This document shows positions 33,916-54,173 of a stretch of 64,000 nucleotides of DNA, one piece after another. Where the stretch lies: contig CBDCDS010000003.1 of the NCBI GenBank assembly GCA_965215365.1, forward strand, positions 1,152,001-1,216,000, read 5' to 3'. The number at the start of each line of letters is the position of its first letter. The stretch's first letter is position 1. The notes under the pieces were generated by a model that saw only the letters and a program-made list of their open reading frames with translations, made no database searches and had not been told where the DNA came from. The translations under genes were made by a program, and so were the position numbers. This stretch comes from Gammaproteobacteria bacterium (GTDB taxonomy: Bacteria; Pseudomonadota; Gammaproteobacteria; Eutrophobiales; Eutrophobiaceae).

Positions 33916-34821
33916 GTGAAGCAACGCAGTCGCGAAATCAGTATTTTCAACATGTCCGCCCTGGACCTGTTTGCCTCGGCATTGGGCGCGTTCATCCTGA
34001 TAACGCTGCTCCTGTTACCCTATTTCCCCAATCCTGATCCCGGTCCTGCACAAGAGGAGGCGGAAAAGACCCGGTCGGGAGCGGTTGCAGCAGAGACAGA
34101 AATCGAAGAACTTCGGACTGAATTGGCAGAAAGCAATGCCAGAGGGCGGGAATTGCAGGATAAATTAAAGGCTGCAAACGCCCGGCTGGAAGCGCAGCCA
34201 ACACCCACCAAGGTGGCATTTCCTCCCCTGGATTTGGTGATTGCGCTGGATACCACCGGCAGTATGCACGCACAGGTGCAAGGTCTGAAAGATGAGGTCG
34301 AACAAATTGCGCGGCTGCTTTTGAAGTTAGCGCCAAGCGTAGGCATTGGCGTGGTGGATTTCAAGGATCGTTGTGAAGGCCACAGGGCTACCCATGTCTT
34401 CCCCCTGGTTGAGATGAATAACGTCAGTATCCGCAGTTTATCCGGGTTTACCCGAGGCATTACCGCGGGTGGCTACGCCGGTTGCAACGCAGACAACGAG
34501 GAAGCCATCAACCTTGCGCTCGACCGGGCAGTTACCATGCCCTGGCGCGACCAGACAACCGTCCGGTTGATTGTCGTCATTTCGGATTATCCCGCCTACC
34601 CGGAAACACAGGCCTCCGTTTTACGGCAGGCAAGGCAGTTTGCCGCCGCGCGGGCGGGCAACCGTGTCTCAACCGTGCATGTATCAACCCGGGGTCATGC
34701 ACTCGGCATGACAGCAGGCCCCGAATTTCTGCAACGGCTGGCAGACGCGGGCAGGGGGCAGTTCGTAGGGGGCGGCGGCTCATTCACCGCCATGATATTA
34801 CTTGCCCTCGCCGATAGCTGA
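33916..34821 (+). CDS. vWA domain protein with N-terminal MotB/ExbD-like TM helix and coiled coil
   Basis: IFNMSALDLFASALGAFILI helix; LDLVIALDTTGSM MIDAS motif; VVISD. Confidence 0.85.
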   Translation: MKQRSREISIFNMSALDLFASALGAFILITLLLLPYFPNPDPGPAQEEAEKTRSGAVAAETEIEELRTELAESNARGRELQDKLKAANARLEAQPTPTKVAFPPLDLVIALDTTGSMHAQVQGLKDEVEQIARLLLKLAPSVGIGVVDFKDRCEGHRATHVFPLVEMNNVSIRSLSGFTRGITAGGYAGCNADNEEAINLALDRAVTMPWRDQTTVRLIVVISDYPAYPETQASVLRQARQFAAARAGNRVSTVHVSTRGHALGMTAGPEFLQRLADAGRGQFVGGGGSFTAMILLALADS

Positions 34822-34854
34822 GACCGGCCCCTTTGTTATGGATTCATGTCCGCT

Positions 34855-35988
34855 TCAAACAAAGGCTTCCGTATCCCGCAAAAACATTTCTGCAGGGACA
34901 ATCTCTATGCCGCCCTCATGGAAATACCGGTCTCCTGAATAAACGCAAATCAATTCCGCCTCCGGGTATTCTTCCTTGAATTGCTTAAGACCCTTGAAAT
35001 TTTCACGGCGGATGCGGTTCGAGTGCTTGACCTCAATGGCTTTTAATCCACGCTCTCCATACAGCACAAAATCAACTTCCGCTCCCTGTCGGGTACGCCA
35101 GTAATAGATGCCGTAATTCCAGTGCTGGTAATCATTGCGCGCGGTAATTTCCTGCAACACCAGCGTCTCCAGGGCCGCGCCTTCTGCTTCAGCATCCGAG
35201 TCATAGGGACCCGCAGGTCGCAATGCCCGGAACACACCCGCGTCGAAAAAATAGAACTTGACACTGCGGCTCAGGTTACGTTTGGCCCTTCTGGCAAACA
35301 CCGGAATTTGATATGACACCAGGGTGTCTGTCAGGATTGAGAAATAGTTCTCCACGACTTTGCGGTTGACTGCGCAATCCCTGGCTATGGCGGATATGTT
35401 CAGCGGCGAGCCCTGTGAAAAAGATGCCGCTTCCAGAAACCGGCTGAACGCCGGCAGGTTACGCGTCAGCCCTTCCAGTTGTATCTCTTCCTGCAGGTAG
35501 GTTCGAACATAGCTTTGCAGGAACAGGTCCGGGTCAGTGGAGGTGCAAGCCATGGGTAGCTGTCCATATTTCAGCGCACGCGCCAGGTTGAAATCAGCGC
35601 CCAGTTCTGCGGCCGTGAACGGGTGCATGCGACAGGTCAGGGCGCGTCCTGCAAGCAGGTTGACATGATTGCCTCGCAGCCGGCGCGCGCTAGAGCCGGT
35701 CAGCACAAAACGAAGATGCCGGCTTTCTATCAGGCGATGAACTTCATTCAGTAACGCAGGAACCTTCTGCACCTCATCAATAATCACCCAATCGTCGAAC
35801 CCTTCCGGTATTCTGCGGGATAACCTTCCCGGCTCAGCCATGAATTCGTTGTAAAGTTGCGCTTCCAGAAGGTCAAAAAACAGCCCTTGCTTGTAGAAAT
35901 CCCCTACATAGACGCTCTTTCCGGTACCCCTTGGGCCGAAGAGAAAGTAGCTTTGGCGTGCCGGGGGAGAGAAAACTCTTGGATACAT
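34855..35988 (-). CDS. AAA+ ATPase with DUF4143 C-terminal domain
   Basis: GPRGTGKS, IIDEVQK, LTGSS, KFYFFDAG, YWRT..GAEVDF, IEVK. Confidence 0.9.
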   Translation of the reverse strand: MYPRVFSPPARQSYFLFGPRGTGKSVYVGDFYKQGLFFDLLEAQLYNEFMAEPGRLSRRIPEGFDDWVIIDEVQKVPALLNEVHRLIESRHLRFVLTGSSARRLRGNHVNLLAGRALTCRMHPFTAAELGADFNLARALKYGQLPMACTSTDPDLFLQSYVRTYLQEEIQLEGLTRNLPAFSRFLEAASFSQGSPLNISAIARDCAVNRKVVENYFSILTDTLVSYQIPVFARRAKRNLSRSVKFYFFDAGVFRALRPAGPYDSDAEAEGAALETLVLQEITARNDYQHWNYGIYYWRTRQGAEVDFVLYGERGLKAIEVKHSNRIRRENFKGLKQFKEEYPEAELICVYSGDRYFHEGGIEIVPAEMFLRDTEAFV

Positions 35989-52034: not shown

Positions 52035-52052
52035 CCTATTTCTTGGTTACCC

Positions 52053-54173
52053 ATGCCTGACTACCTCCACGCCCTGCCTGCCGGCTACCGCCTTGACGAA
52101 TACGAACTGGTGCGGGTGCTGGGCAGTGGCGGGTTTGGCATTACCTACCTGGGCTACGACCATCACCTAGACAAAGCCGTCGCCATCAAGGAGTACCTGC
52201 CCAATGATCTGGCGGTGCGCGCTGACAATCACTCGGTGCTGCCCAAGTCCAGTCAGGACAAGGCCGATTACGAATGGGGCTTGGCGCGCTTTCTCAATGA
52301 AGCGCAGACCTTAGCCCGCTTTGACCACCGGCATATTATCAAAGTCTATCGGTTCTTCCGCGCCCATGGCACCGGGTATATCGTGATGGAGTATGCCGAG
52401 GGAGACACCTTATCAAAAGTGTTACAGCGTAAGGGGACTCTGACAGAGACCGAGTTACAAGCCCTGCTGTTTCCCATTCTGGACGGGTTGGCCGTGGTGC
52501 ATGAGGCCGATGTGCTGCACCGGGACATCAAGCCGGGGAATATTGTGATACGGGACGATGGCAGCCCGGTATTGATTGACTTCGGCTCGGCGCGTCAAGC
52601 GGTGGCGGGGAAGAGTCGCAGTGTGACGGCAATTGTGACGCCGGGGTATGCACCGATAGAGCAGTATTCAGCCAAGGGGCATCAGGGGGCCTGGACGGAT
52701 ATCTACGCCTTAGGGGCGGTGTGTTACCGGTGTTTGACCGGAGAGCTACCTGATGATGCAACCGAGCGCTTGCGCGATGACCCGTTAGTCCCTGCTGTCC
52801 AGCACTGCAAGGGCAAGGCAAGCACCGCCTTGCTCAACGCCATAGACCGGTCTCTTAAGGTAGATGAGGGGGAACGGCCGCAAAGCGTGGCGGCATGGCG
52901 GGAGATGCTATTGAATAAGACGGTAGCTTCAGCCTATCACCAGATAGAGGAAACGGCGAAACCGGCCACCCGGCCTCCTTCAATAAGCTCTCCAGAGGCT
53001 AAAGTTGGTTGGTTAAAACCCCTGCTGGTTGGGGTAGCAGTGTGGGTAATCTGTTTACTGTTAGTCTTTCTCGCGCAGGAGCAAGCTGCCATACAGCAGC
53101 AGGCTGTCAAACGAGAACGGATACGGCAGGAGCAGGCTGCCATACAGCAGGAGCAGGCTGTCAAACGAGAACAACGGATACGGCAGGAAAAATTATCTAA
53201 CGTTGAAATGTTCGAACAATATATCGTGGAGCAGGCTGTCAAACGAAAACAACGGATACTGCAGGAAAAATTATCTAACGTTGAAATGTTCGATCAATAT
53301 ATCGTGGAGCAGGCTGTCAATGAGCATTGGAACGCGTTTACGGCAGAGCTGAGGACTGGAGATCTGGTCGGAGCGGCTGCTTCCTTGTTTCAAATACGCC
53401 AGTTAAGCCCGAATGCGCCCGGTTTGTCCGACGGGGAGCGACTTTTAGCTGAGGCTCAGGTAGCTGCTCTGGCGAAGGCAATAGAGATGGTCTCCATCCC
53501 CGGCGGCACGTTCCGCATGGGGGATTTGAGTGGGGAGGGTTATAGCAACGAGCAACCCGTTCGCCGCGTCACGGTACCGGCCTTCAGGCTGGGAAAATAC
53601 GAAGTCACGTTTGCCCAATGGGACGCCTGTGTGGCGGATGGAGGCTGTAACGGTTACACCCCGCTTGTAGGCTGGGGCCGCGGCAACCGCCCGGTCGGCA
53701 ATGTCTCTTGGAACGACGCCCAATCCTTCATTGATTGGCTGAACGGCAAGACCGGCGGTAACTACCGCTTACCCACAGAGGCAGAGTGGGAGTATGCGGC
53801 CCGGGCCGGCACGACCACGAAGTACAGTTGGGGCGATGACATCGGCAGCAACCGGGCGAACTGTGATGATGATGTTTGCGGCGACTCCTATGAATACTCC
53901 GCCCCGGTAGGCAGTTTCCCGGCCAATCCTTGGGGCTTGCATGATATGCACGGTAATGTGTGGGAGTGGGTGCAAGATTGTTACAACGATAGTTACAAAG
54001 GTGCCCCGACAGACGGCAGCGCTTGGATGAGTGGTAATTGCGGCGAGCGCGTGCTTCGGGGTAGTTCCTGGTTCGGCGATGCGAGGTTCCTGCATTCCGC
54101 TTTCCGCTTCAAGGGTGCCGCCGCGAGCCAGTTCCACTTCGACATCGGCTTTCGTCTGGCCCAGGACAAGTAA
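52053..54173 (+). CDS. Ser/Thr kinase copy 3 - TM - coiled-coil repeats - FGE-sulfatase (CLec-fold) domain
   Basis: Kinase motifs; FRMG, YEVTFAQW, PVGNVSWND, YRLPTEAEWEYAARAG, GNVWEW, IGFRLAQD. Confidence 0.95.
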   Translation: MPDYLHALPAGYRLDEYELVRVLGSGGFGITYLGYDHHLDKAVAIKEYLPNDLAVRADNHSVLPKSSQDKADYEWGLARFLNEAQTLARFDHRHIIKVYRFFRAHGTGYIVMEYAEGDTLSKVLQRKGTLTETELQALLFPILDGLAVVHEADVLHRDIKPGNIVIRDDGSPVLIDFGSARQAVAGKSRSVTAIVTPGYAPIEQYSAKGHQGAWTDIYALGAVCYRCLTGELPDDATERLRDDPLVPAVQHCKGKASTALLNAIDRSLKVDEGERPQSVAAWREMLLNKTVASAYHQIEETAKPATRPPSISSPEAKVGWLKPLLVGVAVWVICLLLVFLAQEQAAIQQQAVKRERIRQEQAAIQQEQAVKREQRIRQEKLSNVEMFEQYIVEQAVKRKQRILQEKLSNVEMFDQYIVEQAVNEHWNAFTAELRTGDLVGAAASLFQIRQLSPNAPGLSDGERLLAEAQVAALAKAIEMVSIPGGTFRMGDLSGEGYSNEQPVRRVTVPAFRLGKYEVTFAQWDACVADGGCNGYTPLVGWGRGNRPVGNVSWNDAQSFIDWLNGKTGGNYRLPTEAEWEYAARAGTTTKYSWGDDIGSNRANCDDDVCGDSYEYSAPVGSFPANPWGLHDMHGNVWEWVQDCYNDSYKGAPTDGSAWMSGNCGERVLRGSSWFGDARFLHSAFRFKGAAASQFHFDIGFRLAQDK

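Follow-up and report, generated by a model that had tools for sequence, protein, structure and literature searches.

To our knowledge, the characterised motors of the 5:2 type (flagellar stators and the Ton, Tol, gliding and Zorya systems) are switched by partner binding or plug release and not by a dedicated kinase/phosphatase circuit. The threonine phosphorylation pathway of type VI secretion systems (T6SS) uses the kinase PpkA, which carries a periplasmic von Willebrand factor A (vWA) domain, together with the PP2C phosphatase PppA, Fha1 and TagQRST, and the TerY-P triad consists of a vWA protein, a PP2C phosphatase and a Ser/Thr kinase. In the current study, we analysed a 64,000-nucleotide stretch of a gammaproteobacterial genome (assembly GCA_965215365.1, contig CBDCDS010000003.1, positions 1,152,001 to 1,216,000 of the forward strand; hereafter the window), in which a TolQ/ExbB/MotA-like channel protein (A) and a vWA protein (B) are encoded together with FHA, PP2C, trypsin-FHA and Ser/Thr kinase proteins. 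These genes travel together across phyla, and we consider it probable, with some reserve, that they build a phospho-regulated, ion-driven TolQ-like/TPH-vWA membrane motor of the 5:2 type.

The closest system in print was predicted in silico (Mol Biol Evol 2025; PMC12204202), with TolQ-like pentamers joined to dimers of transpore-helix vWA (TPH-vWA) proteins that have a conserved Asp in the transpore helix. In the accessible part of that paper, the vWA genes come mostly as heterologous pairs and encode membrane-tethered vWA proteins with a TolR-like helix, and neither the word kinase (0 occurrences) nor PP2C or FHA domains are mentioned. An earlier note on the window, drawn up from its sequence alone, had called the system a candidate for a novel one. 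Judged against the accessible part of PMC12204202, the motor core is already predicted in print, and what may be new is the link to a kinase/PP2C/FHA circuit. No paper joining a MotA/TolQ/ExbB protein with FHA, PP2C and kinase as one system was found in a literature search that left most subscription journals outside.

Results

Genes of the system

The open reading frame (ORF) coordinates given in the earlier note are correct for the system genes of the window, which are as follows.

33916-34821, plus strand: B subunit candidate; GTG start, basic N-terminus, Asp helix, coiled coil, vWA
41708-42493, plus strand: A subunit candidate, TolQ/ExbB/MotA-like channel protein; the longest ORF begins at 41684
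42506-43153, plus strand: cytoplasmic FHA protein (Pfam FHA)
43153-44094, plus strand: PP2C phosphatase (Pfam PP2C_2) with a C-terminal membrane anchor at residues 292-310 (hydrophobic segment)
44138-45727, plus strand: T1, trypsin-FHA protein of 529 amino acids (aa) (Pfam Trypsin_2 and FHA)
52053-54173, plus strand: full-length receptor kinase with a Hanks kinase domain, a transmembrane (TM) segment at residues 323-341, a repeat/coiled region and an FGE-sulfatase-like domain

The four genes from A to T1 form the tight plus-strand run that had been described (41684-42493, 42506-43153, 43153-44094 and 44138-45727), with spacings of 12, -1 and 43 nt, and Pfam matches and hydrophobic segments bear out its reading as a MotA/ExbB-like protein, an FHA protein, a TM-anchored PP2C and a trypsin/TM/FHA protein. 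The gene for A stands, but its start has to be moved from 41684, as homologues begin at the position equal to 41708, which gives a protein of 261 aa.

Co-inheritance across phyla

A scan of one genome per species gave 573 pattern matches, 541 of which encode relatives; the best 80 loci were used, and partners were counted in the 60 of them with at least 6 kb on both flanks. The tblastn rules were strict (same strand, within 8 kb, N-terminal match) and the counts were checked in five relatives. The expected co-occurrence was borne out: under these rules A was accompanied by a kinase in 56 of the 60 loci, by B in 53, by PP2C in 53, by FHA in 51 and by trypsin-FHA in 43, a small FHA gene lay directly upstream of A in 43, and all five partners (B, kinase, FHA, PP2C and trypsin-FHA) were found together in 32. 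The misses include copies on the opposite strand or farther away.

According to the record labels, the gene set occurs in at least seven phyla. The best 80 loci are labelled Gammaproteobacteria, Alphaproteobacteria, Latescibacterota, Gemmatimonadota, Acidobacteriota, Binatia and Rhodothermales, with one Acidimicrobiaceae bin, and cultured carriers are Pseudomonas sp. WN033, Halioxenophilus sp. WMMB6, Nioella ostreopsis Z7-4 and LSUCC0112. Three gene orders recur, namely T1-T2-B-small FHA-A-FHA-PP2C-kinase (T2 being a second trypsin-FHA protein, described below), small FHA-A-FHA-PP2C-T1-T2-B-kinase, and a minimal arrangement with B directly behind A (L090, L094, L097, L098 and L103). The more distant of the same-genus loci (L023-L026) carry, on one strand, MotA-FHA-PP2C-T1-(T2)-B-kinase(-FGE). 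A single B gene is present in most loci, and two are found only in L050, L051 and L105. Two Rhodospirillaceae bins (L097/L098, 9450-13028) hold a minimal four-gene form consisting of small FHA, A, B (330 aa) and FHA-Sel1, with no PP2C or kinase match within the 13.6-13.9 kb examined.

It could be argued that only the four MotA, FHA, PP2C and trypsin-FHA genes form an operon, and that in a genome rich in kinases the vWA gene and the kinases came to lie near it by chance, as mobile and unrelated genes separate them from the core in the window. The counts of B and kinase beside A in well-flanked loci across phyla refute this, as does a relic junction showing that B once lay behind a trypsin-FHA gene here, as it does in the relative L068; we give the idea next to no credence.

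A second TolQ-like cluster in the same genome offers a further comparison, and it fits the description in the accessible part of PMC12204202.

Contig C3:182326-187924 (L107 2326-7924), minus strand: second TolQ-like cluster, with genes for a MotA_ExbB protein (267 aa), a 435-aa protein without a Pfam match and two TPH-vWA proteins (361 and 334 aa)

This cluster is followed downstream by lipoprotein-like and Sel1 genes and preceded upstream by PEGA-FGE-sulfatase and TPR genes, and A is 32% identical to its MotA-like paralogue. The cluster contains no FHA, PP2C or kinase gene, which argues that the association of these three with A is specific.

Neighbours of the gene set in ten loci include a PPC-domain protein, an LDL-receptor-B/collagen protein, a stand-alone FGE, FHA-Sel1, oxidoreductases and a beta-lactamase-fold protein; each of these is lineage-specific, and nothing among them emerged as a common effector.

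The A and B subunits

A matches Pfam MotA_ExbB (PF01618) at 42.2 bits against a cut-off of 22.9, and the family is present in all 120 of the A homologues listed. In an alignment of 23 sequences from several phyla, the mean column identity of A is 71%, and the motifs P-T-x-G-F-x-G-T and F-x-T-T-L-L-A-L, which align with TolQ PYIGLFGTVWGI, are invariant, as is the tail GQYCLDNL-NRLY. The model of A (pLDDT 82.6) has a helical fold of the TolQ/ExbB type with two long pore helices. Its closest folds in the PDB are TolQ of the TolQ-TolR complex (TMq 0.56-0.57, prob 1.00), followed by ExbB, MotA, PomA and ZorA, the last at rank 49. One candidate A-FHA fusion, P0026 (384 aa, PF01618 and FHA), was rejected, since it begins like a small FHA protein and then runs through text that looks out of frame before A follows; it is treated here as a probable frameshift or gene-call artefact.

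The vWA assignment of B passes Pfam VWA_2 barely (27.7 bits, cut-off 27) and is settled by the AlphaFold model (pLDDT 84.9), in which a helix (residues 11-36) and a long helix or coiled coil (45-93) precede an alpha/beta domain that matches the vWA domains of BatB, ANTXR2 and integrin at E ~1e-8. The N-terminus of B reads VKQRSREISIFNMSALDLFASALGAFILITLLLLPYFPN. The lone Asp that the earlier note saw in its helix is indeed the single acidic residue there, but it is Asp17, counted from the GTG start, and not position 18. All 62 B N-termini compared read ...REINIFSMSALDLFASALGAFILI..P(Y/F)FPN, the first 39 residues being nearly invariant and Asp17 present in every one, and in an alignment of 55 B proteins D17, F11, L18, A20, S21, G24, F26 and P35 never vary. 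In the head, whose DxTxS...D motif is like a metal-ion-dependent adhesion site (MIDAS), Asp D112 is kept in 55/55 and the other MIDAS positions in 37-45 of 55, and VWA Pfam families match 30 of the 55. From residue 1, with Asp on Asp, B aligns with both TPH-vWA proteins of the paralogous cluster (E 7e-4 and 6e-6).

A and B may of course not form a rotary motor at all. They could instead serve as a kinase-gated ion channel or a membrane scaffold, with the vWA and trypsin-fold domains binding a periplasmic ligand and the kinase, FHA and PP2C proteins relaying the signal. Such a signalling role would suit a core in which no effector or load (peptidoglycan-binding domain, TonB/TolA-like partner or rotor) was found, the dead protease T1 looks like a binding module, and the kinase/PP2C/FHA set resembles signalling modules such as the T6SS pathway. 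The near-invariant Asp helix and the pore motifs of A, however, follow the pattern of energised 5:2 motors, the modelled B resembles other force-transmitting B subunits in its long coiled coil and its head, and the accessible part of PMC12204202 models the sister family as a 5:2 complex. We regard the channel or scaffold as quite improbable and favour the motor.

The phosphorylation proteins

The cytoplasmic FHA protein begins with a conserved motif, MPVYR(G/D)xDG(K/N)I(I/V)EEKT, the family start reading MPVYRGPDGKIIEEKT. In the PP2C, the metal-binding motifs ED, DGMGG, DG and DN can be read from the sequence. T1 consists of a hydrophobic N-terminus, a Trypsin_2 domain, a Q/A/E-rich coiled region, a TM segment (363-381) and a C-terminal FHA domain, a layout that predicts an exported trypsin fold and a cytoplasmic FHA domain. 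Its designation as a pseudo-trypsin was apt, as the catalytic His is kept and the Asp and Ser columns hold Asn and Phe. Across loci the trypsin-FHA proteins fall into two paralogues, T1, the window type with a dead triad, and T2, in which H-D-S is kept with GNSGGP. The small FHA protein of other loci ends ...GPVRRNxxTGEII, and in its C-terminal motif R(R/D)(N/D)xx(T/S)GE, usually followed by I or V, the hydroxyl residue is Thr in 44 of 46 sequences and Ser in 2. Many FHA domains prefer pT-x-x-I, and the Thr-Gly-Glu-Ile of this tail would fit a pT-x-x-I/V pattern, which we offer only as a lead. A itself is probably not an FHA target, because its cytoplasmic part has no invariant Thr in the 23-sequence alignment.

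In 70 cluster kinases the catalytic motifs are nearly invariant and the outer domains vary, with FGE-sulfatase domains in 26/70 and ankyrin repeats in 26/70. The kinase domains of this gammaproteobacterium are 60-72% identical to those of Latescibacterota loci. The membrane kinases said to flank the core at 37535, 48619 and 52053 all carry Pkinase, but only 52053 is complete; its FGE-sulfatase-like domain is predicted from the topology to be extracytoplasmic. The remaining kinase sequences are as follows.

37535-38794, plus strand: Ser/Thr kinase with C-terminal hydrophobic segments (Pfam Pkinase)
46942-47442, plus strand: FGE-sulfatase domain fragment, the remnant of a kinase sensor domain (Pfam and comparison with relatives)
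48619-49899, plus strand: split Ser/Thr kinase gene (Pfam Pkinase), interrupted at 49277-49519; the downstream part, 49339-49899, has a TM segment

Kinase 37535 lacks the FGE domain that its L068 orthologue has and ends 6 nt before an insertion sequence (IS) of the IS66 family. Kinases 37535 and 52053 do not differ over their first 117 residues (window 37535-37885 and 52053-52403), which suggests recent duplication or gene conversion among the copies.

An inserted island with a reduced copy

The system lies in an inserted island, whose length of about 20.6 kb is the distance between two flanking housekeeping genes.

32994-33797: short-chain dehydrogenase, island flank
54429-55448, minus strand: homoserine O-succinyltransferase, island flank

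The same two genes are 34 bp apart in G005, a genome without an orthologue of the system, and 1.5 kb apart in G006, where the system lies about 1.6 Mb away from them. The rest of the window is housekeeping (UvrB, ThrRS, PheRS, ThiC, GlnE, PNPase, TruB, IF-2 and NusA), with polysaccharide genes and an RTX-repeat protein gene. The latter (11744-15052) encodes 1102 aa with 27 RTX calcium-binding repeat stretches and coincides with a GC-skew spike of 0.37 at 12-14 kb.

Besides the system, the island carries an AAA_14/DUF4143 ATPase gene, a PIN/MazE pair, a second PIN gene, an NTP_transf_8 gene, an ORF without a Pfam match and mobile elements.

34855-35988, minus strand: AAA_14/DUF4143 ATPase (PADLOC PDC-S01, E 2.6e-53)
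38801-41072, plus strand: IS66-family element of 2.27 kb; transposase ORF 39542-41065 (Pfam DDE_Tnp_IS66)
45951-46985: NTP_transf_8 gene
49277-49519: miniature inverted-repeat transposable element (MITE) of 243 bp with terminal inverted repeats, splitting kinase gene 48619
50666-51364, minus strand: ORF of 232 aa without a Pfam match, 86% identical to an ORF between kinase genes in L068/L020

Homologues of the ATPase (41-42% identity) adjoin the system in three acidobacterial loci (L084, L088 and L102). The NTP_transf_8 gene is 87% identical to a copy in L028 (332-1363) that adjoins a MazE/PIN pair; this neighbour makes it look like a mobile cassette travelling with toxin-antitoxin (TA) genes.

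The IS66 element interrupts the cluster and is no part of the system. The 2.73-Mb genome holds it in 16 copies, counting those that reach 1500 nt or more, and their identity of 99.7-100% points to recent activity. Its word depth is 12-25 times that of the flanks in read runs X1, X4 and X6. Of the MITE, 49 copies of at least 200 nt are present in the genome, and a related copy lies, reversed, between the FHA and PP2C genes of L028 (10892-11144). Directly upstream of A, at 41037-41703, word depth is 20-37 times that of the flanks in all four read runs examined, which suggests that other high-copy repeat DNA is held there; the 243-bp MITE has no blastn match at 41.2-41.6 kb. This high-copy DNA occupies the place of the small FHA gene of relatives. 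Short-read contigs from three studies match 33700-37570 and 41577-48644 without differences, and none bridges 37570-41577, where the repeats lie.

A degenerate relic precedes B.

33815-33915, plus strand: 3'-end relic of a trypsin-FHA gene with the conserved trypsin-FHA/B intergenic junction (DNA alignment)

It was recognised in a three-way DNA alignment of the 3' end of the window trypsin-FHA gene and the L068 junction, and by blastn against L068; the shared junction is the reason to conclude that B once followed a trypsin-FHA gene here.

Given this history, the window copy could be in decay and have ceased to function as a system, its genes surviving only by chance or for unrelated uses. The relic itself shows rearrangement, homology with relatives upstream of A ends at 41718, and the IS66 copy between kinase and A is 100% identical to other copies. 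The kinase damage described above and the loss of two genes would agree with decay as well. In close relatives, the small FHA gene lies directly upstream of A in G003, G007, G008 and G018 and T2 is present in G003, G008 and G018; among the five relatives examined, the small FHA gene was not found in G006, and T2 was found neither in G006 nor in G007 (88% complete). Against decay, the five core ORFs are intact, with dN/dS values against close relatives of 0.08-0.12 for A, 0.19-0.27 for the full-length FHA gene, 0.18-0.23 for PP2C, 0.19 for T1 and 0.21 for B, and the set compared includes G006, which shares the reduced gene set (dS 0.37-0.67). The five genes are thus under purifying selection, though very recent inactivation would still be compatible with such pairwise values. 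Moreover, the full kinase 52053 is left, and the break in kinase 48619 is apparently recent and polymorphic, because a contig of read run X6 joins 49276 to 49520 and so holds the gene without the MITE. We consider a dead remnant rather unlikely. Across loci the members of the gene set belong together; the window copy is a reduced, rearranged member of that widespread set and not an intact wired unit.

Distribution and horizontal transfer

Orthologues of A (54-93% identity) were found in 9 of 22 same-genus genomes, and relatives at the paralogue level (32-36% identity) in 21 of the 22. Of 401 genomes sampled evenly from the class, 8, this one counted, have an orthologue (E <= 1e-50). A quick maximum-likelihood tree (82 rows, rooted on the paralogue) places the six-row clade of the window inside a 44-row clade (SH-aLRT 99) with 30 Latescibacterota rows, and the same-genus genomes G010, G001 and G004 in another supported clade with Binatia. 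In the closest relative, the chromosomal location of the system is another one, and two loci occur within one genome record twice (L037/L056 and L058/L066). The sequence comparisons lead us to regard the gene set as horizontally mobile. Separately, Gemmatimonadota and Acidimicrobiaceae A genes in L064/L065, L035/L036 and L067 are almost identical to Latescibacterota ones (branch lengths 0-0.1), which suggests either very recent transfer or mis-binned contigs.

This patchy distribution, the nesting with Latescibacterota and Binatia, the 20.6-kb island at differing places, its TA pairs, PDC-S01-type ATPase and IS, and the occasional double loci are also what a Zorya-type defence system would show. 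In such a system, compatible with the motor mechanism, a kinase array would sense phage or an envelope breach, and the motor with its tethered protease would be the effector, depolarising the membrane or cutting a target; the finding of two or more kinases in 28/80 loci, with their variable outer domains, would fit this as well. PADLOC, however, run on ten island proteins, gave no system-level match: ZorA2 for A was weak (E 1.5e-4, 18.9 bits), no Zor model matched the other nine, and there was no TerY-type match. The other matches were generic for the kinases, PDC-S01 for the AAA_14 protein and weak for PP2C and trypsin, so that, with A, three core genes had weak matches, and three proteins had none. 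In addition, neither the core nor the ten accessory neighbours yielded a nuclease, NADase or other usual effector domain, no relative was found in the viral contigs searched, and the genes stay under purifying selection in this genome and in G006, where T2, the only active enzyme candidate, is missing. A defence role is therefore, in our judgement, unlikely, though compatible with the mobility and the context.

Discussion

All of these observations suggest a motor whose state could be set by phosphorylation. A pentamer of the TolQ-like A (41708) would surround a dimer of B (33916), with Asp17 of the N-terminal B helix as the ion-binding residue, and the coiled coil and vWA/MIDAS head of B would extend into the periplasm. 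Receptor Ser/Thr kinases, represented in full by 52053, could sense a cue through their variable outer domains, FGE-sulfatase-like or ankyrin, and phosphorylate threonines on which FHA domains would then dock, namely those of the soluble FHA protein (42506) and of the membrane-tethered trypsin-fold proteins (44138), and, in complete systems, the small FHA protein encoded just upstream of A as a further phosphothreonine reader. The membrane-anchored PP2C (43153) would reset the phosphorylation state. Phosphorylation may in this way gate assembly or rotation.

Several points weigh against the proposed motor. The 80 loci are not independent, as 30 come from one phylum (Latescibacterota) and metagenome bins account for many, and the carrier genomes are rich in kinase paralogues. 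At the sequence level, a profile of A run against PDB sequences reaches solved TolQ at a marginal E of 0.29, the missing invariant Thr makes A itself an improbable FHA target, and no ExbD, TolR or MotB Pfam family is found in the window B (E <= 0.01) or among the 25 listed of 85 families for 55 B members. Contact between A and B has no structural support from a complex model of A(112-261) x4 with B(1-60) x2, which scored 0.01 against a mark of 0.32 and is evidence neither way. Finally, the window copy is compromised. Two of its three kinases are damaged (37535 truncated, 48619 split), and neither the small FHA gene nor the active protease T2 was found anywhere in this genome. A distance of 6.9 kb separates B from A, and the AAA_14/DUF4143 gene, the PIN/MazE pair, the truncated kinase and IS66 lie between them, which makes their co-transcription impossible here.

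As to function, the earlier note had considered defence or host contact; envelope surveillance or ligand pulling is our preferred guess. A bolder version, which we put forward tentatively and think unlikely, is that the gene set represents a new class of rotary motor gated by Hanks kinase, PP2C and FHA and serving as a mobile envelope-breach or phage sensor-effector, in which several receptor kinases with interchangeable outer domains would feed one motor, and this motor would swing the vWA heads, together with a tethered protease, in the periplasm. On this version, the reduced copy would show that a selected function needs no more than the motor, the dead protease, one FHA protein, PP2C and kinase. 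The loss of genes amounts to a natural deletion experiment, in that the small FHA protein and the active protease are gone from two related genomes in which A, B, FHA, PP2C, the dead protease and kinases are still maintained by purifying selection. If the proposed motor is real, the gene set would add to the known motors a phosphorylation-gated 5:2 motor with a ligand-binding vWA head. The question is directly testable, since cultured strains carry the genes.

Comparison with known systems

The system is neither Zorya nor a T6SS regulator and matches no characterised T6SS, Tol or Zorya locus, in line with what had been noted from the sequence. No T6SS, Ton or Zorya partner was present among the 47 window ORFs scanned with Pfam, the PADLOC run on ten proteins gave the result reported above, and the genome, at 97.6% completeness, yielded no VipB/TssC (PF05943).

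From Zorya the locus differs in having no ZorC, ZorD or ZorE and in an A of 261 aa without the long ZorA-type tail; it shares with ZorA-ZorB the (here putative) 5:2-type motor genes, the mobile and patchy locus and the fold match of A. ZorB carries a peptidoglycan-binding domain where B has vWA. Among stator units generally (ExbB-ExbD, TolQ-TolR, MotA-MotB/PomA-PomB), A has the same fold and pore motifs, and B likewise has one helix, with an Asp of the essential type close to its short, basic N-terminus. Unlike their B subunits, however, B has no ExbD, TolR, MotB or OmpA-like domain and bears a coiled coil and a vWA head instead, and no partner of the TonB, TolA or FliG type turned up.

The T6SS threonine phosphorylation pathway similarly combines a membrane Hanks kinase, PP2C, an FHA reader and a periplasmic vWA domain; in that pathway the vWA belongs to the kinase, whereas here it is part of the candidate B subunit. 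The TerY-P triad encodes the same three domain families together, but in the present system the vWA protein would be inserted in the membrane through its Asp helix and paired with a TolQ-like channel, with FHA and trypsin-fold proteins added.

The nearest likeness is to the TPH-vWA motors as the accessible part of PMC12204202 describes them, in that a tolQ-like gene is linked to a membrane-tethered vWA protein with an Asp helix and without tolR or exbD. Set against that description, the present gene set usually has one B gene and not a heterologous pair, and it adds a kinase, a PP2C phosphatase, three to four FHA proteins and a live/dead protease pair.

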